In this document: positions 2,370-63,186 of the stretch, in pieces
Layout: each line of letters opens with the position of its first letter
Numbering within the stretch: position 1 is the stretch's first letter
From: an uncultured Pseudomonadota bacterium
GTDB lineage: Bacteria; Myxococcota_A; Polyangia; Fen-1088
Assembly (NCBI GenBank): GCA_963847705.1
Contig: CAWKBC010000001.1
Location: forward strand, 96,001-160,000
Length of the DNA: 64,000 nt
Reading direction: 5' to 3'
Notes under the pieces: model-generated
What the model was told of the DNA's origin: nothing
Databases searched by the model: none
The model's input: the letters and a program-made list of their open reading frames with translations, nothing else
Translations under genes and position numbers: made by a program

Positions 2370-2382
<13 letters not shown>

Positions 2383-35172: not shown

Positions 35173-35250
35173 GCCCCTGCATTTGCTGCGACGGAGGCGA
35201 ACTTGTCAGAAAATGCAACCAACCCCCAGACGACGACCTCTGGTGTCAGT

Positions 35251-35281
35251 CTCCCTGACAACGGCCGAGGCCTGCCGACAA
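35251..35281 (+). promoter_or_regulatory. GACAA-N15-GACAA direct repeat upstream of the AraC gene
   Basis: GACAA at 35257 and 35277; same arrangement recurs at other carbohydrate-gene promoters. Confidence 0.6.
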
Positions 35282-35294
35282 GTACATAACAGGC

Positions 35295-36314
35295 ATGGAT
35301 GAGAGGGCGACCGGACGCCGCGCGAACTGGCCAAGCGTCTTGCAACCTGACGCGCCTGCGCCCACGGTGATGGCGCGAGCGGCGCGCGGTGGAATGGCAT
35401 CCCTGCTGAGGGCACTCGACGAGATTCGCTCCCTCGATGATACCGACCTCATCCTGCGCCGCGCGATCGAGCTCGCCCGCGATCGAATAGGTTTGAAGCG
35501 CGCGGGGATCTTCGTGCTCGATACCTCCCGGAGGGTGATGCTGGGGACGTGGGGGATGGATCTCTCCTGCACCGTCGTCGATGAACATCAAGTCATCTAC
35601 GAGCTCTGCGGGACCGACGAGGAGGCGCTGCGCCGCGCCGCGGACGAGAGAATGCATTTCACAGTCTTCGAGAACTGCCCGATCATCGAGCACCACCGAG
35701 GCGAGACTCGGATTGCTGGACGCGGCTGGGTGGCAAAGACGCCGATCCGATCGCGGGACATGGCAATCGGGATGATGTTCAACGACGCGGGATTGACCGG
35801 CGCTCCTTTCGACGACGCGAAGCAGGCACAAGCTGCCATCCTCTGCATGATGCTCGGGTCAGTGCTGGACCCCCTGCGCGGGCTCCATGGGCATCGGGTC
35901 GGTCCCCTCTTCGAATCGCCCAGCCAGTCGATCGTCTCCTCGACGGTCGCGATGCTGGACGCAGAGCCGGGAATGAGTGGAGGGGAGATCGCCAGGTCGT
36001 TGAACATCAGTCAGTCGCATCTCGGTCGCGCGTTCAGAGCCGTCAAAGGAATGTCGCTCGTTGATTACCGGAATCGGTTGCGCGTGGAAAAGTTCATTGC
36101 GCTCCTCGAGCGCGGTGAGACCAACCTTCTCGATGCGGCGTTGGAGGCCGGGTTCGGCAGTTATTCTCACTTCCACCGCGTGTTTTTGGAGCAACGGCGC
36201 GTGACCCCCAGCGAGCACCTTCGCCGGTTGAACAGCGGGCGTCGCGCCTCAAGGCTGTCCGACAGCGTCGAGCAGGGCCGCCACGACGGCCGTGGCCGCC
36301 GCTTCTCGAAGTGA
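35295..36314 (+). CDS. AraC family transcriptional regulator with GAF-like N-terminal domain
   Basis: IARSLNISQSHLGRAFRAVKGMS, YRNRLRVE, AALEAGFGSYSHFHRVF...TPSE; exact start uncertain. Confidence 0.9.
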   Translation: MDERATGRRANWPSVLQPDAPAPTVMARAARGGMASLLRALDEIRSLDDTDLILRRAIELARDRIGLKRAGIFVLDTSRRVMLGTWGMDLSCTVVDEHQVIYELCGTDEEALRRAADERMHFTVFENCPIIEHHRGETRIAGRGWVAKTPIRSRDMAIGMMFNDAGLTGAPFDDAKQAQAAILCMMLGSVLDPLRGLHGHRVGPLFESPSQSIVSSTVAMLDAEPGMSGGEIARSLNISQSHLGRAFRAVKGMSLVDYRNRLRVEKFIALLERGETNLLDAALEAGFGSYSHFHRVFLEQRRVTPSEHLRRLNSGRRASRLSDSVEQGRHDGRGRRFSK

Positions 36315-36525
36315 TTTGCGTGACAACTTCAGATCCGGCGGGAACAACGACAGGGGACCGGCGGGGTGGGCGGTTCGGGAGTCGGACCCGACCGATCCGG
36401 GCCAGTCGAAGAGCTGGGAATATCAAAATGTCTGGACCTTTCTCGGGCAATTCCGAGGCCGACCCGGCGGTCGCATCTTCGAGGTCCCCGGGGTGAAGAT
36501 TTCTGCGGGATTTTGCTCGATCTAA

Positions 36526-36543
36526 ATATTAATCTGTTAATAT
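36526..36543. promoter_or_regulatory. palindrome ATATTAA-N4-TTAATAT upstream of the GGDEF-EAL gene
   Basis: Perfect 7-4-7 inverted repeat in an AT-rich patch. Confidence 0.5.
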
Positions 36544-36600
36544 CGCGTATGTGAGCTTACGCGTTATAGCTTATCAGATGTTGGACGAGGCGGCGTCCAG

Positions 36601-38397: not shown

Positions 38398-38460
38398 GCG
38401 GAGGCGGCAGGCCCCTGCGGGCCTGCGGGTCGAGCAGCCACGGGGCCGTTGGCCGTCGAG

Positions 38461-39978
38461 TCAGACCCGCCGTCGACGGCGGGCAAGGGCGAGCAGGGCA
38501 AGTCCAAGGGCAAGGGCGGCTTCCAGGTCGGCGTGTGCCTTCCCCGTCGCTCCGCCAAGCGCACAGCTGCAGCCGCCACTGGAGTCGGACTCGGTCCCGC
38601 CGGACGAGCCGCCGCTTCCCACCTCTCCGCCGGTGCCGGCGCTCGAGGTTCCGCCCGAGCCGCTGCCTCCGGTCGCCGCCTGACCGCCCGTCGCGCTGCC
38701 GCCGGCGCCGAACGCTCCGCCGGTGCCAGTCGCGCCGCCCGAGCCCGGTGTGCCGCCGGTCCCATTGCCGCCGCTGCCCGGCGTCCCTCCCTCCCCCGAC
38801 GCTCCACCGGTCGCTCCGTTCCCTGCGTGCCCGCCGACGCCGCCGCCCCCGCCGCCTCCGACAGAGCCGCCGCGCCCCGCCGATCCCCCGCTTCCGCTGG
38901 TTCCGCCGGTGCTCCCGCCCTTGCCGCCAGCGCCGCCGCTGCCGACGGCGCCTGCGCCTCCACCTGCGCCACCAGCTCCTCCCGTCGAGCAGGCGGCGAT
39001 CTCGGGATCCACCGGACCGGTCTTGTCGAGACCCAAGAAGGGGACGACGTAGGTCGCGTCGAAGAGAGCGTCCGAGGGGCCGTGATCGCCGCCGATCGAC
39101 GTGAAAGCATCGAGGACGACGTAGCCGCACGAATTCTTCCACTGCTGCCGCGTCGCCTGGTGAGTCCCCAGGGTCAGCCCGGTCGTCGTCGACGTCGGGC
39201 TGGTGCTCAACCCCAGAACGTTGGTCCACTGCTTGATGGCTTCGCCGAAATTTTTGTAGCTGATGGTGGGATCGGAGTCGCCGTGGAAGAGCTGCACGCG
39301 GGGGCGAGGTCCCGTGTATCCCGGGTCCATTCCCCGCGCGAGATCCCCCCATTGCTGCGCGGTCATGATGTCGTTGCCGCCCGCGCAGGTCCCACCCCAG
39401 TTGCTGGCGGCGCTCCAACCGTCGGACCAACATCCGGCCGGCACCCCGGCGAACGAGGCGCCCCCCTTGAACACGTCGGGGTAGACGGCCATCAGCGCCT
39501 GCGTCATCATCGCGCCCGACGAGTCTCCCGTCGCGTACACGCGATCGGCGTTGGCGCCGTACTTGGTGATCGTGTACTTCACCATCTCTGCGATGGCCTG
39601 GGTGTCGCCGCCGCCGTCGTGCGTGAGCGAGGCCTTCGAGCCGACGTCCCAGCATTTCGCGGAGGTCGCGGGGTTGGTCGTCTGCGGGAAGATCATGATG
39701 AAGCCGTACTGGTCGGCGGCCGCCACGACCCCGCCCCCTTGCGCCTGCCCAAAAACGGCGGAGGCACTGCCTCCGCAGAAGTGCGAGACGACCAGGATCG
39801 GCGGGTCCGTCGCCAGCTTGTCCGGCACGTAGATGTACATGCTGATGTAGCTGGGGACGCCGCTCGCTCCCCAGTTGCTGACCGGCTGCAGCGACGCCGC
39901 CTCAGCCGGCCTGGCCACCAGCCAGCCGAGCAACGTGGTGAGGAGGAGAACACGCGCAACGGTAACCCTGGGGGACAT
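38461..39978 (-). CDS. CE1 / PHB-depolymerase-family esterase (acetylxylan/feruloyl esterase-like) with MYXO-CTERM anchor
   Basis: Signal peptide, MYIYVPD, HFCGGSA, CWDV, nucleophile GDSSG, HGDSD; Gly/Ser linker then SSGGCSC...TM-RRRRR. Confidence 0.85.
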   Translation of the reverse strand: MSPRVTVARVLLLTTLLGWLVARPAEAASLQPVSNWGASGVPSYISMYIYVPDKLATDPPILVVSHFCGGSASAVFGQAQGGGVVAAADQYGFIMIFPQTTNPATSAKCWDVGSKASLTHDGGGDTQAIAEMVKYTITKYGANADRVYATGDSSGAMMTQALMAVYPDVFKGGASFAGVPAGCWSDGWSAASNWGGTCAGGNDIMTAQQWGDLARGMDPGYTGPRPRVQLFHGDSDPTISYKNFGEAIKQWTNVLGLSTSPTSTTTGLTLGTHQATRQQWKNSCGYVVLDAFTSIGGDHGPSDALFDATYVVPFLGLDKTGPVDPEIAACSTGGAGGAGGGAGAVGSGGAGGKGGSTGGTSGSGGSAGRGGSVGGGGGGGVGGHAGNGATGGASGEGGTPGSGGNGTGGTPGSGGATGTGGAFGAGGSATGGQAATGGSGSGGTSSAGTGGEVGSGGSSGGTESDSSGGCSCALGGATGKAHADLEAALALGLALLALARRRRRV

Positions 39979-40095
39979 GTCGAGGGATTGTCCGACCCGC
40001 GAAAAATTGTCACGCCGGGCGCGATTTGCGCCCGAGCACGACGCCGAATCGCCAGGGACTCCCATCCGATGCGTGAAAAGGAGGATGCCCCCACA

Positions 40096-40127
40096 TTTGC
40101 GTGACAAGAGGGCGGCCCGAGGGACAA
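40096..40127 (+). promoter_or_regulatory. TTTGCGTGACAA-N15-GACAA direct repeat upstream of araB
   Basis: GACAA at 40103 and 40123; similar flanks at 58387-58429. Confidence 0.65.
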
Positions 40128-40145
40128 CAACCACTAGACAGCATC

Positions 40146-41831
40146 ATGAGTGGCAACGCCTGTGTGGTGGGGATCGACTTCGGCACCGACTCGGTGCGCA
40201 GCATCGTCGCTGATGCGACCACGGGAAGCGTCCTCGGCACTTCGGTAAGGAACTACTCCCGGTGGGCCGACCGGCTCTATTGCGCTCCGGTCGACAACAG
40301 GTTCCGGCAACACCCGCTCGACTACCTCGAAAGTATGGAAGCGGCGGTGCGGGAGGCGCTCCGGGAGGCGGGGCCGGCGGCGTCCGCCCTGGTGCGTGGC
40401 ATCGCGGTGGACACGACCGGTTCCACGCCGGTGCTGGCCGACCGATCGGGCGCGCCCTTGGCGCTCAGCGCCCCGTTTGCCGAGAACCCCAACGCCATGT
40501 TCGTCCTCTGGAAGGACCACACCGCCGTCGCCGAGGCCGAGCGGCTGAATCGTCTCGCGCGGACGTGTGGCGGGGTGGACTACACCAAATACGTCGGCGG
40601 GATCTATTCGTCGGAATGGTTCTGGGCCAAGGCGATTCACGTCCTCGAGACCGACCCGGCGGTGGCCGAGGCGGCGGTCACCGTCCTCGAGCATTGCGAC
40701 TGGATTCCCGCCGTGCTCACCGGCACGACCGACCTCGCGCGGTTCAAACGAAGTCGCTGCGCCGCCGGACACAAGGCCCTCTGGCACGCGGAGTTCGGTG
40801 GCTACCCGTCGGACGCGTTTCTCGCGAAGCTCCACCCCAAGCTTCCGGCGCTCAAGAAAACACTGGGGACGGAGACCTTCACCGCCGACGTGCCCTTCGG
40901 CGCGCTCTCGGCCGAGTGGGCGGCCAAGCTCGGCCTGTCGCGCGAGACGGTGGTGGCGGTGGGCGCGTTCGACGCTCACATGGGCGCCGTGGGCGGAGGC
41001 ATCGGCCGGAACCGACTGCTCAAGGTGATGGGAACGAGCACCTGCGACATCGTCGTCGCGGCTCCTGCCAATGAGCCCGAGAAGCTGGTCGCCGGGATCT
41101 GCGGGCAGGTCGATGGGTCGGTCATTCGAGGCATGATCGGCTATGAGGCCGGCCAGTCCGCGTTTGGAGATGTGTACGCCTGGTTCAAGGCGCTCCTCTC
41201 CTGGCCTCTCGAAGCCATCTTGCCGACGCTGACCGGCATCTCGGACCTGGTGAAGCGTCAGGTGGCCGACGGCATCGCTGAAAAGATCATCCCGGCGCTG
41301 GAACAGGGTGCGACGGCTTTGAACGTCGAGGAGACGGTTCCCGTCGCGCTCGATTGGTTGAACGGTCGGCGGACCCCGGACGCCAATCAACGACTCACGG
41401 GCGCCATCACCGGCCTCCGGTTGGGCACCGATGCCCCTCGCATCTTTCGGAGCCTGGTCGAAGCCACGGCGTTCGGCTCTCGGGCCATCGTGGAGCGCTT
41501 TCGCGCCCAGGGGATCCGGATCGACCGCGTCATCGCCATCGGCGGCGTGGCCAAGAAGAGCCGCTTCGTGATGCAGACGATCGCGGACGTCATGGGCCTC
41601 GAGGTTGCGGTGGCGGCCGGTGATCAGCCTGTCGCGCTGGGTGCCGCGATGTTTGCCGCCACGGCGGCCGGTCTCTATGGCCAGGTCGAAGAGGCTCAAC
41701 AGGCGATGTCGGCCGGCACCGAGACGGTCTATCGCCCCGAGCCTATCCGCGTGAAGCGTTACGACAGTCTCTACAAAGAGTATTTGGCGCTGGGCGCGTT
41801 TGTGGAGACCGGGCTGAAGGACAACTCGTGA
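40146..41831 (+). CDS. araB: ribulokinase
   Basis: GIDFGTDSVR, FRQHPLDY, DTTGSTP, LWKDHTA, YSSEWFWAK, LDWLNGRRTP. Confidence 0.93.
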   Translation: MSGNACVVGIDFGTDSVRSIVADATTGSVLGTSVRNYSRWADRLYCAPVDNRFRQHPLDYLESMEAAVREALREAGPAASALVRGIAVDTTGSTPVLADRSGAPLALSAPFAENPNAMFVLWKDHTAVAEAERLNRLARTCGGVDYTKYVGGIYSSEWFWAKAIHVLETDPAVAEAAVTVLEHCDWIPAVLTGTTDLARFKRSRCAAGHKALWHAEFGGYPSDAFLAKLHPKLPALKKTLGTETFTADVPFGALSAEWAAKLGLSRETVVAVGAFDAHMGAVGGGIGRNRLLKVMGTSTCDIVVAAPANEPEKLVAGICGQVDGSVIRGMIGYEAGQSAFGDVYAWFKALLSWPLEAILPTLTGISDLVKRQVADGIAEKIIPALEQGATALNVEETVPVALDWLNGRRTPDANQRLTGAITGLRLGTDAPRIFRSLVEATAFGSRAIVERFRAQGIRIDRVIAIGGVAKKSRFVMQTIADVMGLEVAVAAGDQPVALGAAMFAATAAGLYGQVEEAQQAMSAGTETVYRPEPIRVKRYDSLYKEYLALGAFVETGLKDNS

Positions 41832-41905
41832 GCTACGAAAGACGTCTTCGCTTGGCTTCCCGCGGCGGCCAGGAATGGTCTGAACGAAATGAGGACATTG
41901 GAGCA

Positions 41906-43411
41906 ATGAGCGCAGTAAGCACCCAGGAAGTCTGGTACGTGACAGGCAGTCAAGAGTTGTACGGTCAGGAAACGTTGGACAAGGTCGCGGAGCACTCCCG
42001 CGAAATTGCCGCGTATCTCAGCGATCAGCTGCCGGTGAGGGTTGTCTGCAAGCCCACGCTCACTGGGCCAGAGGCGATCTCGCAGATGTGCCTGGAGGCC
42101 AACGCCGCTCCCCAGTGCGTTGGCCTGATCACCTGGATGCACACCTTTTCGCCCGCGAAGATGTGGGTGAACGGCCTGAATCAACTGACGAAGCCGCTGG
42201 CGCACCTGCACACGCAGTACAACCGCGAGCTCCCCTGGTCGGAGATCGACATGGGGTTCATGAATCTGAACCAGTCGGCCCACGGCGACCGCGAGTACGG
42301 GTTCATCCTGGCCCGACTCCGGCTCGACCGAAAGATCGTGGTCGGTCACTGGCAGGACAGCGCTGTCATGGCCGAGCTCGACGCCTGGTCGCGCGTCGCC
42401 TGCGCCGTCGCCGAGTCGCGCAAGCTGAAGATCGTGCGCTTCGGAGGCATGAACATGCGCGAGGTCGCAGTGACGGGCGGCGACCGCCTGGAGGCCCAGA
42501 TTCAGCTGGGGTGGTCGACGAACGGCTACGGCGTGGGCGATCTGGTGGCGCACATCGCCGAGGTGCGAGACGCCGAGATTGACCAGCTCGTGGAGCAGTA
42601 CGAGGCGCAATACACCGTGGTTCCCGAGCTGCGCCGGGGCGGGGCCAAGCGTGAGAGCCTGCGCTACGCCGCCCGGCAGGAGATCGGGATTCGCGCGTTC
42701 CTCACGGAGGGCGGCTACGGTGCCTTCACCACGACGTTTGAGGACTTGCACGGGCTGAGCCAGCTTCCTGGGCTGGCCGTCCAGCGTCTGATGGCGGACG
42801 GCTACGGCTTTGGCGCCGAGGGCGACTGGAAGGCGGCCGGGCTGGTCCGCCTCATGAAGATCATCGCCGCCGGCCGCAAGGGCGGCGTGTCCTTCATGGA
42901 GGACTACACCTACCACCTGGTGAAGGGTCAGGAGACGATCCTCGGCGCGCACATGCTCGAGATCTGCCCGTCGATCGCCGATCTCGCGGAAGGAAAGCCC
43001 TCGCTGGAGATCCATCCGCTCTCCATCGGCGGCAAGGGTGATCCCTGCCGGCTGGTCTTCAACGCGGCGCCGGGGCCTTCGGTCGCCGCTTCGATCATCG
43101 ACATGGGCGGGCGGCTGCGAATGGTCGTGCAGGAGATGGACGCGGTCAAAGCCGAGCACGCGATGCCGAAGCTCCCCGTGGCGCGCGCCCTCTACGTGCC
43201 GCGGCCGGACTTTCGCCGCGGGTGCCAGGCCTGGCTGCTGGCGGGCGGCGCGCACCACACCTCGTTCAGCCAGGCGGTCACCGGCGAGCAGCTCTCCGAC
43301 CTGGCCGGCATGTTGGGCATCGAGTGCGTGCGCATCGGAAACGACACCGAGCTCGGCGCGCTCAAGAACGAGCTCCGCTGGAACGACGCGGCCTATCGGT
43401 TGGGCCTCTAG
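41906..43411 (+). CDS. araA: L-arabinose isomerase
   Basis: VTGSQELYG, WMHTFSPAKMW, NLNQSAHGDREYG, FGAEGDWK, FMEDYTY, GAHMLE, GGAHHT. Confidence 0.97.
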   Translation: MSAVSTQEVWYVTGSQELYGQETLDKVAEHSREIAAYLSDQLPVRVVCKPTLTGPEAISQMCLEANAAPQCVGLITWMHTFSPAKMWVNGLNQLTKPLAHLHTQYNRELPWSEIDMGFMNLNQSAHGDREYGFILARLRLDRKIVVGHWQDSAVMAELDAWSRVACAVAESRKLKIVRFGGMNMREVAVTGGDRLEAQIQLGWSTNGYGVGDLVAHIAEVRDAEIDQLVEQYEAQYTVVPELRRGGAKRESLRYAARQEIGIRAFLTEGGYGAFTTTFEDLHGLSQLPGLAVQRLMADGYGFGAEGDWKAAGLVRLMKIIAAGRKGGVSFMEDYTYHLVKGQETILGAHMLEICPSIADLAEGKPSLEIHPLSIGGKGDPCRLVFNAAPGPSVAASIIDMGGRLRMVVQEMDAVKAEHAMPKLPVARALYVPRPDFRRGCQAWLLAGGAHHTSFSQAVTGEQLSDLAGMLGIECVRIGNDTELGALKNELRWNDAAYRLGL

Positions 43412-43418
43412 GCTGCCC

Positions 43419-44144
43419 ATGAAATCGATCTACGCCGATCTGAAAGAAGAGGCCTGGCGGGCGAACATGGAGATCCCGCGCCGGGGGCTGGCCATCTACA
43501 CCTTTGGCAACGTCTCGGCGTTCGACGCCGGGCGCGCGGTGTTCTCCATCAAGCCGAGCGGAGTCGCTTACGAGAACCTCACCGTCGCCGACATGGCCGT
43601 GGTCGACGTCGAGGCCAACCTGGTGGAAGGACACCTCCGGCCATCATCCGACACCAGGACGCACGCCGCGCTCTACCGCGCCTTTCCGGGCGTGGGCGGG
43701 ATCGTCCACACCCACTCGACCTATGCCACCGCCTGGGCCCAGGCGGGCCTGTCGATCCCGATCTACGGCACGACCCACGCAGACCACCTGACCGAGGACG
43801 TCCCTTGCACCGCGGTCATGAGCCCCGAGGCGGTCGAGAGAGACTACGAGGCGGAGACGGGCAAGCAGATCATCGACTGCTTTCGCACGCGTGATCCACT
43901 CCAGACGCCGATGGTGCTGGTGGCCGGGCATGGAGCGTTCGCCTGGGGCAAGACGGCGGACAAGGCGGTGTACCACGCCGTCGTCCTCGAAGAGCTCGCC
44001 AAGATCGCCTCCATCACGCGCAGCCTCGATCCCGGCGCGCGTCGCCTGCCGGAGCACCTCGTTCGCAAGCACTTCGAGCGCAAGCACGGGAAGAGCGCCT
44101 ACTACGGGCAATCGGTCGTCACGCTTCGCAAACCGGCCGGTTGA
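43419..44144 (+). CDS. araD: L-ribulose-5-phosphate 4-epimerase
   Basis: TFGNVS, IKPSGV, RPSSDTRTH, IVHTHS, GTTHADH, GHGAFAWG. Confidence 0.95.
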   Translation: MKSIYADLKEEAWRANMEIPRRGLAIYTFGNVSAFDAGRAVFSIKPSGVAYENLTVADMAVVDVEANLVEGHLRPSSDTRTHAALYRAFPGVGGIVHTHSTYATAWAQAGLSIPIYGTTHADHLTEDVPCTAVMSPEAVERDYEAETGKQIIDCFRTRDPLQTPMVLVAGHGAFAWGKTADKAVYHAVVLEELAKIASITRSLDPGARRLPEHLVRKHFERKHGKSAYYGQSVVTLRKPAG

Positions 44145-44177
44145 ACAGCCGGAAAAACCCGGGAGGACGGGTCAACC

Positions 44178-45743
44178 ATGAGACGAGCACTGCAAATTTG
44201 GGGACTGTCGGGGCTGTTGGTGCTGGGCGCCGCGTCGACGCGCGCTCTTGCCCAGGAACCGACCGAAGACGACACCGCACACGACACGCGGGCGGATGCC
44301 CATCACAACACCGAAGAACCCAAAGAGGCCGAGCAGCCGGTCCCGGTCATCGAGCCGGGGGCCGCGACGGGCACGCCAACGGAGGCGGCCATCGCGCCAC
44401 CTTCCGCCACGCTCCCGCCGCCCGCCAGGCCGAAGGTCGGCGATCTCTCGATCACCGGATATTTCCGCGGCGGTTTCGGCGCGGTCCAGCAGGAGTCGTC
44501 CGGACCGGGCATGACGGTCGGCGGCCGCCAGACCTGCTTCTCGCTCTCCAACCCAGCGGGGCTGGTCGCCAAGTACCGGCTCGGCAACGAGTGCGAGGTC
44601 TGGTCCGAGACGCACTTCACGATGGTGACCTACGTGGGGGACGACGGGGTGGTGTCGACCATGCACTTCATGCCGACCGTCTACATCCCCAACACGAACA
44701 TCGGCTACACCCCGAACGGAACGGTCACTTCACCGTCGATTTATACGACCGCCACCGGGGCCACGATCTCCTTTCCCAATCTCTACGTCGACCTCAAGGG
44801 GATCCCTTGGCTCCACGGAGGCACCGCCTGGGCTGGAACCCGCTACTACAAGCGCGAGTCGGTCTACATCAACGACTTCTTCTACTGGAACCCCTCCGGC
44901 GTGGGCGCCGGCGTCGAGGACATCAAGCTCGGCAAGGACCCGCGTCTCAGCCTGGCGGCCTTCGCCGTCGACGGAGAGCCAGCGCCGCCGGCCGACCCCA
45001 CCGCGCCGTTGCTGCCGTCGCAGCTCGACTTCGGCGTTCGCCTCGACGGACAGCTTCGCGGGATCAAGCCGTGGGAGAGTGGTGAGCTTCAGCTCGGGCT
45101 GCAGTACATCTGGGATTACAGCAACCACCCCGATCCGAACACCGGCCTGTCGGTCACGCACGGCGGCTGGGGAGTCACGTTCCAGTACGTGCAGAAGCTG
45201 CTCGGCGGCGACAACAAGCTCGCCTTGCAATATGGCAAGGGGGCGGGGACAGGCTTTGGAACGCTCTCGCGCTTCTACTACCCGGACTTCTCTCTCTACT
45301 TCGACCCGAGTGAGTACCGGTTCCGGTTCGTCGACGTCCTGACCATACAGCCCGTCGCCTGGCTGGGGGGACAGTTCGACGTCATCTACCAGCGTGACCA
45401 GAACTTTCTCGGCGTCGCCGGGCAGAGCACGACCTGGTACTCCGCGGGCGGGCGCTTGAGCTGGGCGGTTCTCGACCACTTCAAGATGGTCGGCGAGATC
45501 GGCTACGATCGTGTGACCAAAAGTATCAGTCCAGATGTGCAACAGCTGACCAAGTACACCATCGCCCCCACGCTGACCACCGGGCCAGGGCTCATGACCC
45601 GCCCCGAGCTGCGCCTCTTTTACACCTACGCGGTCTGGAGCGAGGCGGCGGCGGAGGCCAACGTCGACTCGGGCATGATCTACCGGGCCACCAACCTCTT
45701 GAGCGGCTCCACCTTCGGCATCCAAGCGGAGACCTGGTACTAG
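44178..45743 (+). CDS. carbohydrate-selective porin (LamB/maltoporin family)
   Basis: GYFRGGFG, KYRLGNECE, WAGTRYYKR, RPELRLFYTYA, C-terminal FGIQAETWY. Confidence 0.9.
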   Translation: MRRALQIWGLSGLLVLGAASTRALAQEPTEDDTAHDTRADAHHNTEEPKEAEQPVPVIEPGAATGTPTEAAIAPPSATLPPPARPKVGDLSITGYFRGGFGAVQQESSGPGMTVGGRQTCFSLSNPAGLVAKYRLGNECEVWSETHFTMVTYVGDDGVVSTMHFMPTVYIPNTNIGYTPNGTVTSPSIYTTATGATISFPNLYVDLKGIPWLHGGTAWAGTRYYKRESVYINDFFYWNPSGVGAGVEDIKLGKDPRLSLAAFAVDGEPAPPADPTAPLLPSQLDFGVRLDGQLRGIKPWESGELQLGLQYIWDYSNHPDPNTGLSVTHGGWGVTFQYVQKLLGGDNKLALQYGKGAGTGFGTLSRFYYPDFSLYFDPSEYRFRFVDVLTIQPVAWLGGQFDVIYQRDQNFLGVAGQSTTWYSAGGRLSWAVLDHFKMVGEIGYDRVTKSISPDVQQLTKYTIAPTLTTGPGLMTRPELRLFYTYAVWSEAAAEANVDSGMIYRATNLLSGSTFGIQAETWY

Positions 45744-46051
45744 CGCCGCCGCCGCTGACGCGACCGCCGGATGAAGTCCGAGCGTGACGCGGGAGCAGGA
45801 GTCGGTCTGAAGCGGCGGGTGTGCGCGTTTCGTCGACGGGGAAGGTGAAGGTGGTCGACCCGGGGAAATGACGCGTGCTGGAAGCATTTCCTGACAACGC
45901 CAGCCCGGGCCAGACAAGACGACATGAGGGTGATGGCGAATCGATTGTGTTTCGCGTTGTCGGAGCGATGCTTGGTGCCACTCCCCGATTGCCGACAGAG
46001 CGTTGCGAACTAGGTATCTGTGTGGCGAATTCCGGGAAAAGGGGTTGGCGG

Positions 46052-46714
46052 GTGACTCGGGTGCCGGGCGCATGGTCGAGCGGTGTGCGAGAGATGCTTG
46101 CCCAGGAGCGGCGGATACCTGCGGTGCCGGCCGCTACCCGGGATCGGGCTCTTGCGCGCGCGTTGGAGGCGATGACCACGATCGCCGCATCACCGCTCGA
46201 ACCGAGACCGCGGCGGAGGTTCCCTTGGGCGGTGTTCGTACCGGTGCTCGGTCTGGCGAGCGCCGCCGGCGGATTGGCTATCTACAGCGCCGGCACCTAC
46301 GCAAAAGCCGTCCCGGCGGTGGCGGTGGCGGTGGCAGCGGGACAAATGCCCCAGTTGATGCCTGAGCGGGAAACGAAGGCCATCGCGATGACTGTCCCGC
46401 GGGTGGAGGTGACAGGTGTGTCTCCCCTTGCTCCGCATGTCCGGAGTCCAGCCGACGGGGAGGTGCATCTCCTGGAGCAAGCACGGGTGGCCTTGGATCG
46501 GGCGGATTTTGCTGCGGCCATGATTCCCCTCGTCGAGCATGCGCGGCGGTTCCAGAACGGACAGCTGGCAGAGGAACGAGAGGCTCTGCGGGTGCGGGCG
46601 CTGTCTGGGCTCGGCCTGCGCGACGAGGTCCGGCGCGCCGCCGCGGACTTCGAAGCGCGGTTTCCACTCAGCCCCCTTTTGCCGGCCGTCACCCGATTGG
46701 CGTCTTCATCATGA
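46052..46714 (+). CDS. myxobacterial single-TM protein with C-terminal TPR-like domain (anti-sigma-like)
   Basis: TM helix then E..LLEQAR.AL...HARRF.NGQLAEEREAL.V.AL...F.ARFP.SP pattern; start uncertain (45875/46052/46094). Confidence 0.55.
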   Translation: MTRVPGAWSSGVREMLAQERRIPAVPAATRDRALARALEAMTTIAASPLEPRPRRRFPWAVFVPVLGLASAAGGLAIYSAGTYAKAVPAVAVAVAAGQMPQLMPERETKAIAMTVPRVEVTGVSPLAPHVRSPADGEVHLLEQARVALDRADFAAAMIPLVEHARRFQNGQLAEEREALRVRALSGLGLRDEVRRAAADFEARFPLSPLLPAVTRLASSS

Positions 46715-46801
46715 CCTCGCGCGGTCACGCTCAGTTGCGTCGACCGGCTGTTTAGGTTGGCGTGGATGATCCCCAGCGTTCCCCCTGACAGGACGGCCGG
46801 A

Positions 46802-50748: not shown

Positions 50749-50766
50749 GGCGCGGCGCGCTCAACC

Positions 50767-52479: not shown

Positions 52480-52534
52480 CAGGCCCGTCGAGGCTGGCCG
52501 CGCAGACGGCCACGTTGCACTTTCGCCTCTGGAC

Positions 52535-54487
52535 CTACTTGCCGTAGCCGGCGCTCACGATGTTCGCTTGAATGGCCGCGTCGGTGGCGTCGGACGGATA
52601 GCCGGCGACGATGGCGCCTTCGTAGAAGGTCCCCTGGCTGGCCGTGTTGTTGCTGTAGCAGCAGTCGCCGCCGCTGCCGAGAACGATCGACCCCTGCTTC
52701 TTGGCCGGGTTGTATCCGGGGGGAACCGCCCCGCTGTAGAACGTGCTCAGGCTGCCGGTCGTCGCGTCGGCCCCCTTGAGGGCGAAGGTCCCGGTGCCGG
52801 TGTTTTTCTCCATGGCCGTGACATAGCTGTAGCTCATGGTCGGATCGGCCGTGCTCTGTCCGGAGCCGCCCTTGGCATAGAGCCCCCCCTCGAGATCGGC
52901 CATGACCCAGGGACCGGCGCCGGTGCCCGTTCCCCAGATCGTGCAGTTGCTAAAATTGACGGCGTCCATCGAGGGGCCGGCGACGTACATGCGGCCGGTT
53001 TCGCCGTTGCCGTAGTCGAAGCAACATCCGCTGCCGTAGTGCTTGCCGCTGGTGACCATGTAGATCCCTTGCGGAGAGCTGCCGAGCGGCATCCCCGACT
53101 TGGAGCCGTCCCTCCAGTAGGCCTGGCTGGTCTTCATGTAGAGCGAGTAGACCTTGTGGCCGTTGAGGGTCAGCGACTCCTGGGTGGCGTTGGAGGCAGT
53201 CATGCCGGCGTGGCCGCCGACGGTGCTGTTGGGGGTCTCGGCCTCGACGAAGTTGCCGTGCCCGGACTGGTCATAAACGATCGTGATCGTGCACGTCGTG
53301 CCGGAGCAGAACGCATCTTGCGTCGCAGTGTCGGCGAGACCGCCAGGGCTGACGACGCCGATGTCCTTGGTCGCGCCGTCCGACGCGCGCGTGACCTGGT
53401 AGAGACTGCCGCTGTAGGCGCCGAGCAGCGCGCGCACCGTGCTGTGCGCGGCGACGCACGCGGTGTTGGCGGCCGCGTAGATATCACACGGCGCCATCCC
53501 AGAGGCGCCGGACGTGCCTCCATTCGCGCTGGTTCCGCCGCTGCCGCCCTTGCCGGCGGCACCGCCGGTCCCGGGCGCGCCGGCCGTCCCGCCCGCGCCG
53601 CCCCTTCCGCCCGAGCCGGTGGCACCCCCCGAACCTCCGGCGCCTCCCGTGCCTGGAGCACCGCCCGTCCCGACGGTGCCGCCCGTGCTGATGGCACCAC
53701 CGGAGCCCGTGGCGCCACCGGTCGCGCTCGACCCGCCCGAGCCCGACGAGGTGCCGCTCTTCTGAAGCACGACCGTGCCGGAGAGGGGGAGGATCGTCGG
53801 CTTCGGGGTCACGGTCAGCGTGTTTCCCGAGACGCAGTAGGAGTAATCGACGGTGGCGTCGGTGTTGAGGCCGGAGCTGGAGGTCGTGTAGTTGCCGCTG
53901 GTCATCGCCCAGGGAGAAACCACGCCGAGGCCGCCGCTCTGGTTGGCGGTGGCCGTGCAGGCGCAATGGCCGCTGGAATCGTTCGAGCAGGTGGCCGTGG
54001 CCCAGCCGAGCGCCGTGATGGCCCCCGATGCCTTGTCGCACGCGACGTTGACGGACGAAACCGAGAGGCACGCGGCGGCCAACGGGAAGGTGACGGAGCC
54101 GGAGGTGACCGTGTTGTCGGTGTAGGTCCCGTTGCTGTTGGCGATCCATGTTCCGGTCACCTGCAGGGATCCGGTCACGGGAACGGTCTTGCACCCCAAG
54201 CTGGCCAGCGAGACATCCATGTCACCCGACAGGGCCAGACATGACGACGACACGGTCCAGGTGCCGATCAGGCTGCCGCCGCAGGCCGTCCCGTTGGGAC
54301 AGGACGTCGCTCCCCCGGTCCCGCTGGAGCTTCCGCCGGTCCCTGCTCCTCCCGTGGCCGTCGACCCGCCAGTGCCCGTGTTCCCTCCTGTGGCACCTCC
54401 TTGGACGTTGTTGCTGCCACAACCGCCGCTGGCCATCGCCGAGGCGAGAGCCACCGCGCCAAGAAGTCCAAAGAGTCTGTTTCGCAT
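52535..54487 (-). CDS. GH54 alpha-L-arabinofuranosidase B lipoprotein with Cys-rich N-terminal module
   Basis: PCDIYAA, CVAAHSTVRAL, YDQSG, CCFDYGN, nucleophile PWVMADLE, acid/base GSGGD, TFYEG. Confidence 0.9.
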   Translation of the reverse strand: MRNRLFGLLGAVALASAMASGGCGSNNVQGGATGGNTGTGGSTATGGAGTGGSSSGTGGATSCPNGTACGGSLIGTWTVSSSCLALSGDMDVSLASLGCKTVPVTGSLQVTGTWIANSNGTYTDNTVTSGSVTFPLAAACLSVSSVNVACDKASGAITALGWATATCSNDSSGHCACTATANQSGGLGVVSPWAMTSGNYTTSSSGLNTDATVDYSYCVSGNTLTVTPKPTILPLSGTVVLQKSGTSSGSGGSSATGGATGSGGAISTGGTVGTGGAPGTGGAGGSGGATGSGGRGGAGGTAGAPGTGGAAGKGGSGGTSANGGTSGASGMAPCDIYAAANTACVAAHSTVRALLGAYSGSLYQVTRASDGATKDIGVVSPGGLADTATQDAFCSGTTCTITIVYDQSGHGNFVEAETPNSTVGGHAGMTASNATQESLTLNGHKVYSLYMKTSQAYWRDGSKSGMPLGSSPQGIYMVTSGKHYGSGCCFDYGNGETGRMYVAGPSMDAVNFSNCTIWGTGTGAGPWVMADLEGGLYAKGGSGQSTADPTMSYSYVTAMEKNTGTGTFALKGADATTGSLSTFYSGAVPPGYNPAKKQGSIVLGSGGDCCYSNNTASQGTFYEGAIVAGYPSDATDAAIQANIVSAGYGK

Positions 54488-54691
54488 GAGTCCTCAGTCC
54501 TGTTTGTCCGTTCGGCGGGACTTTGTTCACAATTCCTCTCGAGTCCCCGGGAAAGCCCGATGGGATGCGTTCCGAACAAATCCGTCGCGTCATCTGTCGG
54601 TTCGGAGGACTTTGTTCAACGGTTTTTCTGGTGAAGATTTTTTGGCCGGCGCCGCCCTTCCACGGCGAACCCGTATGATAGTGAGGAGCCA

Positions 54692-57519: not shown

Positions 57520-58303
57520 GAGCGTCCTCATCACGGGCACGACCTCCGGTCTCGGCCGGGGCCTCCTCCAGCATTACGCCGAGCAGGCGGTGAAGGTGAT
57601 CTCCGTCAACCGGCGCCGCGTCGAGGCGCTCGAGTCCCAGTATCCGTCCGTCCGCTTCGAGTGCGTGGATGTCCGTTCGGCCGAGCGTGTCGAGAGCCTG
57701 GTCCGCGATCTGGCGGCGTCGGGTGACCTGCCCGACGTCCTCATCTTGAACGCCGGGATCAACCGCCTGGACAACGACGCTGCGTTCGACTTGCCCCTCT
57801 GCCGGGAGGTCGTCGACACCAACCTGTACGGCGCCCTGAACTTCATCGCGCCCCTGACCCGCGTTCCAGCGGCCGGCGGCCAGCGACACATCGTGGCGAT
57901 CAGCTCCATGGTCAATTACGCCGGGAACCCTTACTGCCTCGGGTATTACGCGAGCAAGAAGGCCCTGACGGCTTGCTTCGACGTGTGGGCCGAGATGTAC
58001 GCGGGGACCGATCTGGTGTTCAAGCAGGTCATGCTGGGGCCCGTTCAGACGGCGATCTACACGATGGGCGACAGGCTTCCCCGGTGGATGGTCCGGATCA
58101 AGAGCCTTTGTTCCGCATCGCTCGACGACACGGTCCGCGCGGTTGCACGCTTTGCGCCGACCCGCGGGAGAAAGCTGATCTATCCGTGGCGAGCGCTCCC
58201 TGCCTTCGGTGCGATGCGGCTCGGTCGACGACTCATTCCCGGCTTCTTCCACGGCCGCAAGACGACCGCCGGACAGCCGCGGCGGCGCCTGCCCGGCCGC
58301 TGA
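57509..58303 (+). CDS. short-chain dehydrogenase/reductase
   Basis: LITGTTSGLG, LNAGI, ISS, YYASK (YxxxK). Confidence 0.85.
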   Translation: MNVRSVLITGTTSGLGRGLLQHYAEQAVKVISVNRRRVEALESQYPSVRFECVDVRSAERVESLVRDLAASGDLPDVLILNAGINRLDNDAAFDLPLCREVVDTNLYGALNFIAPLTRVPAAGGQRHIVAISSMVNYAGNPYCLGYYASKKALTACFDVWAEMYAGTDLVFKQVMLGPVQTAIYTMGDRLPRWMVRIKSLCSASLDDTVRAVARFAPTRGRKLIYPWRALPAFGAMRLGRRLIPGFFHGRKTTAGQPRRRLPGR

Positions 58304-58386
58304 CCGAGTCTGTCGTTCGCTCCCTGACTTCCGGCTGGGGGGTGCTGAAGGCGGACGCCGGTCGGGCGGGTGCGAAGCGGCGCAGT

Positions 58387-58417
58387 TTTCGTGACAACAG
58401 CGGGCTCCCGGGGACAA
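58387..58417 (+). promoter_or_regulatory. TTTCGTGACAA-N15-GACAA direct repeat upstream of GH54 #2
   Basis: GACAA at 58393 and 58413. Confidence 0.65.
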
Positions 58418-58464
58418 ACACCACAAGACCCCCCCTTAGTTCCCCCTTGGAAGGAGCCCCTTCG

Positions 58465-60439
58465 ATGAAGGTTCAATCTGCTTTTCCGGCGATGCCGCTC
58501 GCAATCGCAATGATGTTAGGCGCTTGCAGCTCTAGCTCGATTGGTTCATCGGGCACGGGTGGAACCACCGGCACCGGCGGAACCACCGGCACCGGCGGCA
58601 GCTCCAGCGGGACCGGGGGAGGATCGTCCTGTCCCAACGGGACCGCCTGCGGCGGCAGCGTGGTCGGTTCTTGGACGGTGAGCTCGTCGTGTCTGACGTT
58701 GAGTGACAGCAACCTCGACATTTCGCTGGCGGGTCTCGACCCTCGCTCTTGCACGAACGTGACGCTGTCGGGCTCGCTCACCGTGACCGGCATGTGGTCC
58801 GCCAAGTCGGACGGAACGTACACCGATGGCACGACCACTTCGGGCACCGCACAGCTTCAGCTGCCGGCCGGCTGCTTGCAGATTTCGGGGACCACCACCA
58901 CGTGCCAGCGGATCGGTGGTCCTCTCGCAGGTCTGGGCTTCGCTTCTGCCACTTGCACCGATGCCACCGGGGGCGGGTGCTCCTGCACGGCGACGGTGCA
59001 ACAGACGGGTGGGCTCGGGTTTCTGACCTCCGATCCGCAGACCAACGGCAACTACGCCACCTCGGGCAGCACGCTCACCGACGATACGGTGTCGCCGTAC
59101 TCGTACTGCGTCGCGGGAAACCAGCTGACGCTGACCCCGCAGCCGACGAACCCGTCCGGGACCGGGACGATCGTGCTCCAGAAGGCTGGAACGACCGGCA
59201 CCGGCGGCGCGATTGGTACGGGCGGCACGACCAGCACGGGCGGCACGACCGGCACCGGCGGCACGACCGGCACGGGCGGCACGACCGGCACCGGCGGCGC
59301 GAGCGCGACGGGTGGCTCCGGCGGCAAGGGCGGTACGACCGGTACCGGCGGCATGGCCGGCGCCAAGGGGACCGGCGGCGCGCCGGCGACTGGTGGCGCG
59401 ACGGGCACCGGCGGCACCGCCGCGACCGGTGGCGCGACGGGGACCGGGGGATCGACGACGACTGCCGCGGGCCCCTGTGACATCTACGCTGCCGCGGGCC
59501 AGCCCTGCGCGGCCGCCTACAGCATGATTCGGGTGCTCTCGATGGCGTACACCGGCCCGCTCTACCAGGTCAGGAGCGGGAGCTCGAGCATGAACACGGG
59601 CTCGGGCGGAACGACCAAGGACATCATGAGCATCGGTGGCTTCGCCGACACAGCCACCCAGGACACCTTCTGCAGCGGCTCGACCTGCACCGTCTCCATC
59701 CTTTATGACCAGTCCGGGAACGGCAACGATCTCAGGGCGGCGCCCCCCGGCCTCTCCGGCGGGGGAACCTACGCAGCGATGCACGACTTCGAGTCGAGCG
59801 CGACGAAGGGTGCGCTGACCGTCGGCGGGCACAAGGTCTACGCGCTCTACACGAATGCGCGAGAGGGGTATCGGACCGCCGTGGGCGTCAAGGGCAAGAA
59901 CATGCCGATCGGCAATACGCCGCAGGGGATTTACGAGCTCGCGGACGGCACGCACACGGGCACCGCCTGCTGCTGGGACTTCGGGAATGTCTCGACCGAT
60001 CCCACGGTCTACGGCGTCATGAACACCATCTTCTTCGGGACCGGATTCTGGGGCACCGGGGCCGGCAGCGGCCCCTGGTTTCTGGGCGACTTCGAGGGGG
60101 GAGTCTGGGCGGGGGGGTCGGGCGCGTCCACCGTGAACAACCCCAACGACCCGTCAATGAAGGTTCCCTACGCCTTTGGCATCGTCAAGACCAGCTCCGG
60201 GCAATACGCCATCAGGGCCGCCAATGTGCAGACGGCCACCGATTCTGACGACCGCCTACGACGGCGCCTCACCCAAGACCTGGGCCAACACGGGCGGGAT
60301 CCTCCTTGGGATCGGCAGCGACAACAGCAACAACTCGTGGGGGACCTTCTACGAGGGCGCCATCACCGCCGGCCGACCGGCCGACGCGACCGATCTCGCC
60401 GTCCTGAAGAACGTTCAGGCGGCGGGCTACGGCAAATAA
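58465..60439 (+). CDS. GH54 arabinofuranosidase lipoprotein #2 (one frameshift near 60243)
   Basis: Lipobox LGAC, Cys-rich module, TGG linker, GPCDIY, CCWDFGN, PWFLGDFE; C-terminus GIGSDNS...TFYEG...AAGYGK lies in ORF 60176-60439. Confidence 0.85.
59190..59460 (+). repeat. coding tandem repeats (about 18 bp, TGGTTG/TGGATG) forming a Gly/Thr linker
   Basis: Repeated ACCGGCGGCACGACCGGC-type units; similar linkers at 60660-60995, 53500-53760, 33350-33720 and 13790-14060. Confidence 0.7.
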
Positions 60440-60569
60440 GACTCGTCGCGCAACAAAGCCGTCCCCGCTGGCCGTCGCAACGTCCAGCGGGGCTTGAAAG
60501 CTGGATTCCCGCCGCTGCGGCGGTACGGATTGGTTGCGACCTTCAACCCCCCTAGAAGGAGTGAGCCTC

Positions 60570-61695
60570 ATGAGATCCAAGGTCCTGTTCTCCGGTCTGG
60601 CGACGTGCCTGGCGCTCGGGGGATGCGGCTCGGGCGGCACTGATTCGGGTATGACAGCGGGCTCCGGCGGCGCGGCCAGTACTGGTGGGGCCACCGGCTC
60701 CGGTGGGGGCCCTGCCTCCGGCGGAACCACCGGCTCCGGCGGTAAGACCGGCTCGGGAGGGACGACCGGCTCCGGTGGGGTGACCGGCTCGGGCGGGACG
60801 ACCGGCTCGGGCGGGGTGACCAGCACGGGAGGGACCACCGGTTCCGGTGGGACGATTGGCACGGGAGGCGTCACCGGTGTGGCTGGCCGCGGCGGCATGA
60901 CCGGCTCGGGTGGCGCGGCCGGGCGCGGCGGCGTGACCGGTTCTGGCGGGGCAGCCGGGCGGGGCGGCACCACGGGGTCGGGCGGCACCACCGGATTCTG
61001 GAGGCTCCGGCACCGACGGCGGCGTGACGGTCGATTGCTCGGCCACGCTGCCCACCGGCGGAACGACCTACACCGGAACCAACATCAACGGCAGCGCCGA
61101 CGGGCTCGGCTATGGGATCTGGACGAACGGAAGCGGCGGGAGCATCACCGTCTTCCCCAACGCCCACGCGTTCTCGACCTCCTGGAACAACAGCCAGGAC
61201 TTCCTGGCCCACCTCGGCCTCGATTTCAACTCCTCGAAGGCTTACACGGCCTACGGGACCATCGAGGCGCAGTTCTCCGAGGTGAAATCAGGAAGCGCCG
61301 GCGGCTTCTCATCCATCGGAATGTACGGATGGATGCACAGCCCGTGTGTCGAGTGGTACATCAACGAAGACTCGTTCAACGGTCTCGCCCCGCGCGGCAG
61401 CGTCACCGCCGTCATCGACGGAGCCACGTACTACCTGACCACGACGACCACCACCGGAACCGGTGGCGCCAACGCCTGCGAATCTGGCCATACCGGTGGT
61501 TGGACTCAAATGATCAGCACCCGGAAAACGGCTCGCACCTGCGGCAACATCACCGTCAGCGATCACTTCGCGGCGTGGGCGAACCAGGGCTGGAGCTTGG
61601 GCACCCTCTCGTCGGTCCACATCAACGTCGAAGTGGGCGGCGGCTCCGGGAGCATTCAATTTCCGGTGGCAAACGTCACGACGACCAGCAAATGA
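60570..61695 (+). CDS. divergent GH11 xylanase-like lipoprotein (one frameshift near 60996)
   Basis: Lipobox LGGC, GSGG linker; GMYGW..PCVEWYINED, IDGATYY, Q..S.R, ITVSDHFAAW...G, NVEVGGGSGS (both catalytic Glu positions). Confidence 0.8.
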
Positions 61696-61843
61696 CCCGC
61701 TCCTGACCAGGCTGGCCACCGGCCGTTTTCAAATCGACCCGGGGCGCCTCGGCGCTCGACGGCCCTCCCTCCACCGGCCGGCTTGGGCCTCAGGCTGTGA
61801 GCGTCGAGGAGGATCCGGCTCTCGATCTCGGGCGCGACGCCGT

Positions 61844-63001
61844 CTACTGGGCTCCGTAGACGGAGACGATGTTGGCCTGCACGGCGTCGTCGGCCGAGTC
61901 CGAGGAGTAGGCGGTGGTCATCACGCCTTCGAACCAGTTCCCGGTGGCGGCGTTGCTGTTGTCGCCGCCGGTGCCCAGGCCGATGGCGCCTTCCTTCCTC
62001 ATCGGCGTGTACCGCGTGCTGGGGCGCTGGCCGTCGAACGGTGTGGTCAGTCCGCCGGACTGCGCGTTGCCGCTCTTGATGGTCCAGTGGTTCTTGCCGG
62101 CGGCGTCGCCCTTCACCATCCCGGTGACGTAGCTGAAGGTCAGCGGCATGTTGTTGTCGTAGGGGCTCACGTTGCCAGCCCAGAGTCCGTTTTCGAGATC
62201 TCCCATCACCCAGGGACCGTTGTCAGCGCCTTTGCCCCAGATGGTGCAGTTTCCGAAGTAGACGGCTTCCATCGTCCCCTCGCCGTCGTCCCGGCTCGTG
62301 GTTTCCATGTTCCCGTAGTCGAAGCAGCACCCGCTGTTGTAGGGCGACCCGGCGACGACCATGTACTCGGTCTCGGGGTTGTCGCCGGTCGCGGTGCCAC
62401 AGGCCGTGTTGTTGCGATAGCCCACGCCGGGAACGATGTGGACGCCGTAGACGGCGTGGCCACCGAAGGTGGCCGAGACGGACTTCGCGTTCGCTTCGTT
62501 GTCGGGAGTCGTCTTGGCGCCGCCCGCGGGCGCCGAGGTGAGGTTGTTCCCGTTGCCCGACTGGTCATAGATGATCGAGATGGTGCAGGCGGCGGTGCCG
62601 CAGAAAGTGTCCTGGTCGGCCGAGCTGGCGAAGCCCCCCGGCGCGAGGACGCCGATGTCCATCGTCGTGCCGTCCGTCTTCTTGACCTGGTAGAGCGGTC
62701 CGCTGTACGCGGCGTAGAGAGCCCGAACCGTGCTGTGGGCCGCTACACACGCGCCACCGTCGGCGGCGTAGATGTCGCAAGGGCCGCCGGTCGGGCCGCT
62801 GGTGGTCGTCGGTACGCCTGTACAGGCCCTGGTGCCCGTACCGCCGGTGCCGGGGGTGCCGGTGGTGCCGCCCGAACCGACGGTGCCACCCGTCGAGGAG
62901 ACCTCTCCATCCGGCCGGTCCGCGGTGACCTTGCAGCCCAAGCACGAGACGCCCACGATCGCCACCAACGACAGCTTGGTCCCGAATCCTGTTTTTCTCA
63001 T
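61844..63001 (-). CDS. GH54 alpha-L-arabinofuranosidase B lipoprotein #3
   Basis: Lipobox CLGC, GPCDIY, GYRNN, CCFDYGNME, PWVMGDLENG, KEGAIGLGTGGDNSN. Confidence 0.92.
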   Translation of the reverse strand: MRKTGFGTKLSLVAIVGVSCLGCKVTADRPDGEVSSTGGTVGSGGTTGTPGTGGTGTRACTGVPTTTSGPTGGPCDIYAADGGACVAAHSTVRALYAAYSGPLYQVKKTDGTTMDIGVLAPGGFASSADQDTFCGTAACTISIIYDQSGNGNNLTSAPAGGAKTTPDNEANAKSVSATFGGHAVYGVHIVPGVGYRNNTACGTATGDNPETEYMVVAGSPYNSGCCFDYGNMETTSRDDGEGTMEAVYFGNCTIWGKGADNGPWVMGDLENGLWAGNVSPYDNNMPLTFSYVTGMVKGDAAGKNHWTIKSGNAQSGGLTTPFDGQRPSTRYTPMRKEGAIGLGTGGDNSNAATGNWFEGVMTTAYSSDSADDAVQANIVSVYGAQ

Positions 63002-63186
63002 GGATAGGGGGGTTTGTCGGGGAGCAGGAATCTTTGTTACGGTAAAGTGCCTCGACCGCACGAGCGGGGCCGTCTCTGGCCCTGGCCCCGGCCCCGGCTC
63101 AGACACCGGGTGACGCGCCGCAAGGCTACCGGTTTCGCTCGAGAGTCGATCTCCCGATTGATGGGAATGTAAGGTGGCATGCTCTT

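Follow-up and report, generated by a model that had tools for sequence, protein, structure and literature searches.

A predicted ECF sigma factor promoter over hemicellulose genes in an uncultured family of Polyangia

The DNA analysed here (the window, 64,000 nucleotides in full) comprises positions 96001-160000 of contig C1 of the genome labelled G000 (assembly GCA_963847705.1), from an uncultured bacterium of the class Polyangia. Its carbohydrate region contains a recurrent paired element, TGACAA followed some 20 bp on by GACAA, which stands ahead of genes for arabinose utilization and for hemicellulose-degrading enzymes. A sequence-only reading of the window had taken this element for a direct-repeat operator bound by the AraC-family protein encoded nearby, and had named a sigma factor -35/-10 pair as the explanation contrary to its own. 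The comparative sequence data favour the latter, and the element is most likely the -35/-10 promoter of a lineage-specific extracytoplasmic function (ECF) sigma factor that serves a hemicellulose regulon. In this promoter a T-tract with TGACAA would form the -35 element, and (G/A)(A/G)CAA the -10 element.

The paired element and the ECF sigma factor genes

All nine paired half-sites reported for the window are present at their coordinates, each oriented with the downstream open reading frame (ORF). The pattern [GA]ACAA-N14-16-[GA]ACAA has exactly 8 matches in the window, all within 35257-63038, whereas 60 third-order Markov versions of the same sequence contain 0.23 on average and at most 2. 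The motif is thus well above background. The ninth site (35183/35203) falls outside this pattern through its right half, AGCAA. In the whole of G000 (6.1 Mb, 69% G+C, 84.7% complete, 6% contaminated), TGACAA is followed by GACAA at an offset of 21 in 11 cases and of 20 in 4 cases, with 0-2 cases at each of the other offsets from 5 to 44. The motif also occurs outside the window in C1:131-226 kb and in contigs C27, C12, C21, C30 and C34. Eight of the nine window sites are kept in the relative G072, with diverged spacers, while the 35183/35203 site was not found at the corresponding place in that genome.

The likeness reported for the araB site and the site of the second GH54 (glycoside hydrolase family 54) gene holds, with 33 of 44 positions identical when counted by eye. 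The halves of the element differ from each other, the left one consisting of a T-tract and TGACAA, and the right one of (G/A)(A/G)CAA. The consensus of the sites upstream of ECF genes in other genomes is TTTTTC-TGACAA-N15-(G/A)(A/G)CAA, with a spacer of 15 nt in 22 of 24 sites, 14 nt in one and 16 nt in one, and a C precedes GACAA at 60% of sites.

Two of the genome-wide sites in G000 lie 17-18 nt ahead of paralogous ECF genes, at C1:178033 (18 kb past the window) and C27:349913. The product of the former gene, P0001, is composed of Sigma70 region 2 and region 4.2 alone. Each of 89 genomes of the order was queried with the ECF and AraC proteins (presence of the latter being called at E<=1e-25), and the 300 nt ahead of the 30 best loci for each protein were scored, 29 of the AraC loci having upstream sequence. 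The motif was found upstream of 27 of the 30 best ECF loci (25 with the start codon 14-20 nt away, the other two at 88 and 208 nt), versus 3 of the 29 AraC loci. TGACAA is also the commonest A/T-rich 6-mer within the 300 nt upstream of ECF genes (24 of 29 loci in other genomes). Because a matrix trained on the sites of G000 itself is circular, it was replaced by one built from 24 ECF-upstream sites at 29 loci, all in genomes other than G000 (the clade A matrix). With this matrix, 17 sites in G000 score above 20 bits, four of them in the window, versus 2 in a reversed control.

The number of strict motif matches per genome follows the ECF gene and is independent of AraC. Genomes containing both a close ECF homolog and AraC have a mean of 5.3 sites (n=28), those with the close ECF only 5.1 (n=8), those with AraC only 1.9 (n=8), and those with neither 1.1 (n=45), in counts that include each ECF gene's own site and come from mutually related and incomplete genomes. 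Among 251 genomes sampled across the class, only those of this family of Polyangia have ECF matches better than 1e-55, and motif matches outside the family are mostly near background (e.g. 13 versus 12 in the control for G207, and 11 versus 5 for G195). High site counts in G051, G086 and G048 were set aside, as excluding the 16-nt spacer reduced them to 2-3.

The motif also varies with the ECF phylogeny, as outlined by a quick tree of 107 homologs. Among the 69 genes of clade A, 46 have the motif described above (A-type) within 75 nt upstream and none has TGAACA-N14-GACAR, whereas among the 26 genes of clade C the A-type precedes 1 and TGAACA-N14-GACAR precedes 18. TGAGAAG lies ahead of 6 of 7 genes of a nested subclade, B. 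None of the variants was found ahead of 4 genes from Myxococcales/Polyangiaceae, and no spacing peak was seen for the B or C variants. Clades A and C differ at two positions of region 4.2 (157 and 160), the region whose helix reads the -35 element. A clade C matrix applied to G000 ranks that genome's own clade C ECF gene and a GH43 gene first, with 4 hits above 20 bits versus 1 in the control, and a separate clade C regulon is only weakly seen. TGCACA, TCCACA or TCAACA-N14-GACAG sequences ahead of GH43, GH54 and secreted proteins without known identity also adjoin two clade C ECF genes (L249, at G000 C1:210-222 kb; L248:8066; L004:9273).

Promoter geometry, predicted targets and competing readings

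The geometry of the promoter was studied in 206 distinct sites collected from loci around strict matches, which represent part of the matches found across the order. In 13 of these sites the ATG of a long ORF (150 codons or more, or open to the end of the locus) lies 8 nt past GACAA, and in 5 it lies 9 nt past it, whereas other offsets have 1.6 such ATGs on average and 5 at most, and offsets on the opposite strand 0-2 each. The 13 genes span 7 protein families. In the remaining sites a pyrimidine-purine step peaks at the same distance (73/188, versus 32-57 at other offsets). Because both peaks fall at +8, we infer that transcription starts about 8 nt past the right element, which would place the T-tract at about -40 to -36, TGACAA at about -34 to -29 and GACAA at about -13 to -9. 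Leaderless mRNAs transcribed from a -10 element would be expected to have ATG codons at this distance, and many of the transcripts may be leaderless or short-leadered. At the site ahead of the clade C ECF gene of G000, which is resembled by the site of the first GH54 gene (TGAACA-N15-GACAA), the ATG likewise lies at +8, and homologs of the window's CE1-like esterase in loci L182 and L198 begin 8 nt past the motif. The spacer of 15 +/- 1 is within the 14-17 bp range given for ECF promoters (PMC6061681).

The predicted targets were examined through 128 well-coding ORFs behind strict sites, the remaining 78 sites being unannotated. After 17 genes recognisable as ECF and 4 more were set aside, 107 proteins were scanned, of which 70 belong to carbohydrate families, 12 to other families and 25 have no Pfam match, as plain counts rather than enrichments over a genome-wide background of carbohydrate-active enzymes (CAZymes). 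The families include GH2, 3, 5, 6, 10, 11, 27, 30, 39, 43, 51, 54, 62, 67, 115 and 127, together with glucuronoyl, GDSL and PHB-type esterases, AraA, LamB and a periplasmic protein of the sugar-binding type, and the predicted targets are mostly enzymes for xylan and arabinan. The proposal of a cis-element shared by CAZymes, araBAD and the LamB porin is supported, but AraC is most likely not its regulator.

An improbable alternative is that another repressor or activator binds a direct repeat placed over housekeeping-sigma promoters of the ECF and CAZyme genes. ACAA/CAA is common to both halves, sites occur in a few genomes where a close ECF gene is missing, and many ECF genes have TAnnnT 1-3 nt past the right element (8/46 in clade A at +2, 6/6 in subclade B, and 5/16 in clade C at 0-3), suggesting that the ECF genes' own promoters may be compound. 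However, TAnnnT is present at +2 in just 8 of the 206 sites, so that most targets lack a housekeeping -10, and the ATG peak at +8 requires the right element to act as the -10. The halves further differ in flanks and in tolerance, and the motif changes with the ECF clade. A simple housekeeping promoter, TTGACA-N17-TAnnnT, was rejected because the position 17 nt past (C/G)TGACA is occupied by ACAANN rather than TAnnnT. The TAnnnT upstream of ECF genes (e.g. in L015, L018, L020 and at L003:16190) may be an overlapping housekeeping promoter yielding basal, near-leaderless transcripts.

The binding of the 20-bp repeat by the window AraC, with autoregulation, is less probable still. It has a precedent in HrpX, an AraC-type protein whose PIP box, TTCGB-N15-TTCGB, has the same 5-bp direct repeat, 15-nt spacer and period (PMC7831014), and the motif stands ahead of araC in G000, G072 and G063, and weakly in G073. 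Against both binding and autoregulation stands the scarcity of the motif at AraC loci, and in five genomes (G007-G010 and G047) the ECF gene and 4-8 strict sites are present while AraC has no match at the threshold used. Unlike at the PIP box, no downstream -10 box was found, neither by enrichment 28-34 nt downstream nor as YAnnnT/TAnnnT at 8-39 nt among the 206 sites. Start codons, which lie within 25 nt in 74 of the 128 well-coding ORFs, are often 8-20 nt past the motif, so close that a promoter could not fit between an activator site and the gene. The neighbors of the AraC homologs are also mixed, with one GH30, one GH8 and one polysaccharide deacetylase in 44 ORFs. Least credible of all is a translational regulator acting on two GACAA repeats in the RNA leader, since, while sites are strictly sense-oriented and near start codons, the fixed 15 +/- 1 spacer, the upstream T-tract and the pyrimidine-purine step at +8 are in keeping with the geometry of a promoter in DNA, and some sites are 100-250 nt from the start codon.

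Several observations weigh against the assignment of the motif to the ECF sigma factor. The motif is missing from 3 of the 30 best ECF loci and, within 75 nt, from 23 of the 69 clade A genes. G071 contains the ECF gene but no strict site, while strict sites number 3-6 in G003, G034 and G041, where a close ECF gene is missing. G000 itself contains four A/B paralogs, any of which may read its sites. The TAnnnT sequences at ECF genes, and the qualifications given above with the per-genome counts and the family tally, point in the same direction.

The anti-sigma candidate, a barrel protein and the genes of the window

A protein of ~220 residues with one hydrophobic helix is encoded directly behind 48 of 59 ECF genes, mostly with a -4 or -1 overlap. 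Its hydrophobic stretch lies near residues 55-76, and its model shows helices in the N-terminal domain. It has no Pfam match, and no carbohydrate-binding domain was detected in it. No known fold matched the model at E<=0.001 in a fold search, the tetratricopeptide repeat (TPR) proteins YbgF and BamD reaching ~0.03 with the C-terminus, and a few of its Myxococcota look-alikes carry TPR families (11-16%). The predicted complex of the ECF protein with the first 56 residues of this partner scored 0.77, versus 0.01 for the best control, with contact agreement of at least 82% and a partner pLDDT of at least 70. Among 157 solved pairs 116 reach the mark used for such scores, as do 2 among 215 mismatched pairs, and the score may reflect likeness to solved sigma/anti-sigma pairs. 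The coupled protein is predicted to bind the ECF protein as its anti-sigma factor.

The window itself encodes an orphan paralog of this candidate directly downstream of the 45892 site (45947-46714; 42% identity over 220 residues, E 3e-24), the seventh strong match to the anti-sigma profile in G000, which has no adjoining ECF gene and is kept in G072. Anti-sigma genes also lie close behind the motif in G069 and G068. At 28 of 61 ECF loci, many of the 61 covering just 1.5 kb, a third gene lies no more than 3.5 kb away and encodes a barrel protein. In the model of its product, a linker joins a periplasmic alpha/beta domain to a C-terminal barrel, which matches OmpA/OmpX (E 1e-6); matches to TolB are weaker. 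The carbohydrate island of L002 contains a further, more distant ECF gene followed by an anti-sigma-like gene (L002:8449-10412), with no strict motif site upstream.

In the proposed mechanism, the translationally coupled single-pass anti-sigma factor, with cytoplasmic N-terminal helices and a periplasmic TPR-like domain, would hold the ECF sigma factor until an extracytoplasmic signal, probably derived from hemicellulose, frees it, possibly through a relay via the neighboring OmpA-like barrel protein. Both the relay and the nature of the signal are suggested by gene context and by the targets. The freed ECF would transcribe its own gene and those for xylan- and arabinan-degrading enzymes, araBAD, the porin, AraC and the orphan anti-sigma protein, the last of which would provide negative feedback. 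A more elaborate version is speculative and rather doubtful as a whole: a three-part trans-envelope hemicellulose relay (a small OmpA-like barrel of the outer membrane with a TolB-N-like periplasmic domain, a single-pass TPR anti-sigma factor and an ECF), in which paralogous ECFs with altered recognition helices split the polysaccharide genes between them via a TGACAA/TGAGAA/TGAACA code, with orphan anti-sigma feedback, as a TonB-independent Gram-negative counterpart of SigI/RsgI.

Table 1. Motif sites and genes discussed in the text (window positions unless stated; scores from the clade A matrix)
Feature	Position	Strand	Remarks
TGACAA-N15-AGCAA with T-tract, predicted ECF promoter	35183..35208	-	30.2 bits; predicted +1 near 35174; back-to-back with araC site
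TGACAA-N15-GACAA, predicted ECF promoter	35256..35281	+	24.8 bits; 13 nt ahead of AraC start; kept in G072
AraC-family regulator (HTH_18)	35295..36314	+	read as promoter target rather than binder
Motif variant, 16-nt spacer	36321..36347	+	12-15 bits; 253 nt ahead of PAS-GGDEF-EAL gene
PAS-GGDEF-EAL gene	36601-38397	+	downstream of 16-nt-spacer site
Secreted esterase (Esterase_PHB; CE1-like)	38461..39978	-	predicted target
TGACAA-N14-GACAA (CE1 site)	39988..40012	-	3.1 bits, weak; 9 nt ahead of esterase ATG; 15-nt spacer in G072
TGACAA-N15-GACAA	40102..40127	+	16.1 bits; 18 nt ahead of araB; predicted +1 A at 40136; kept in G072
araB (FGGY kinase), araA, araD (class II aldolase family), LamB porin	40146..45743	+	probable operon
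TGACAA-N15-GACAA with T-tract	45892..45917	+	25.8 bits; kept in G072
Orphan paralog of predicted anti-sigma factor	45947..46714	+	actual start probably near 46052; helical domain at N-terminus, one hydrophobic helix, TPR-like C-terminus
GH39 glycosidase	46757..48748	+	downstream of orphan anti-sigma gene
GH54 arabinofuranosidase #1	52535..54487	-
TGAACA-N15-GACAA variant	54504..54529	-	0.5 bits; 16 nt ahead of GH54 #1; kept in G072
TGACAA-N15-GACAA with T-tract	58392..58417	+	30.2 bits; predicted +1 A at 58426; kept in G072
GH54 arabinofuranosidase #2	58447..60555	+
GH54 arabinofuranosidase #3	61844..63001	-
TAACAA-N15-GACAA	63014..63039	-	16.0 bits; 12 nt ahead of GH54 #3; predicted +1 A at 63005; kept in G072
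ECF sigma factor P0001	G000 C1:178033-178584		183 aa; TIGR02937 60.5 bits (cut-off 42.9); PF04542 + PF08281 in homologs
Barrel-protein gene, Myxococcota-type, plus three paralogs	L002:3378-4475 = G000 C1:179378-180475		often beside ECF/anti-sigma pair

The features concerned are collected in Table 1. The ORF at 34666-35172, downstream of the first site, has no Pfam match. The G072 counterpart of the 16-nt-spacer site reads TAACAA-N15-GACAA at the same place, and AraA and LamB have a motif of their own in G054 and G061. Back-to-back divergent pairs of motifs, 48-90 nt apart, are frequent (35183-35281 and 39988-40127 in the window, L001 near 11952-12032, L002 near 1936-1990). A 14-nt-spacer site that is near-identical across several genomes of the genus (L006:6350-7756, on the minus strand at G000 C30:53793; L131) precedes a 469-residue ORF without a Pfam match, and may be a separate element.

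Elsewhere in the window, a sulfate permease is spread over two frames at 2370-4480 (-), suggesting a frameshift or assembly error, and an ice-binding-like (PF11999) protein with Big_5 domains at 12527-14173 (-) adjoins an OmpA-family gene. The interval between GH54 #1 and #2 (54776-58303, +) encodes a split transketolase pair, a GT2 glycosyltransferase and a short-chain dehydrogenase, and has no motif site. A regulator with a LuxR-type helix-turn-helix (63187-64000, +) is divergent from GH54 #3, and LuxR genes also flank the AraC homologs in L041 and L043.

Relation to known systems and significance

Control of glycan genes by ECF/anti-sigma pairs is known in Bacteroides, in the group ECF240, formerly ECF10 (PMC7826278, PMC10766802). 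The present system resembles it in the coupled membrane anti-sigma candidate and in the paralogous ECFs tied to polysaccharide use, and differs in having one promoter type over a dispersed xylan/arabinan regulon that includes araBAD, an anti-sigma candidate without a Pfam match, and a small OmpA-like barrel as its frequent third gene. In Clostridium thermocellum, glycan genes are controlled through SigI/RsgI (PMC6056542). By contrast, the sigma factor described here is of the ECF type (Sigma70_r2 + r4_2, TIGR02937), its host is a diderm, its promoter sequence is different, and a carbohydrate-binding domain was not detected in its anti-sigma partner candidate. Like DdvS/DdvA of Myxococcus xanthus, to which it is likened by description rather than sequence, it combines a myxobacterial ECF with a transmembrane anti-sigma protein (PMC6061681), whereas DdvS drives CRISPR/CBASS defence and the anti-sigma protein here has just ~220 residues. 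The comparison extends to the TPR-like C-terminus. DdvA has a periplasmic TPR region.

The nearest promoter element listed in the 2021 ECF classification is that predicted for ECF218 s41/s28/s33, TGCAAG / CGACA (PMC7826278), a group which shares the CGACA-type -10 and a single-pass anti-sigma protein at +1, but is 100% actinobacterial and has a different -35. For the myxobacterial groups ECF210, 216, 220 and 267, the text of that classification gives no conserved promoter, and the ECF described here lacks the C-terminal extension of the ECF220 type, the groups being compared by text description. GACAA and TGACA are absent from the readable text of its supplement, the tables of which could hold a matching group. 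No description of the motif was found in the openly accessible literature on ECF sigma factors, myxobacteria, hemicellulose and leaderless promoters.

The motif illustrates that a -35/-10 pair can mimic the direct repeat of a transcription factor, which calls for caution in reading such repeats as operators. A 2024 review describes ECF control of hemicellulase genes as less understood (PMC10766802). The analysis offers a promoter consensus, a candidate regulator and a predicted regulon for hemicellulose use in a family known here from assemblies of the metagenome-assembled genome type alone, and the promoter would predict which uncharacterised secreted proteins of this family act on xylan and arabinan.

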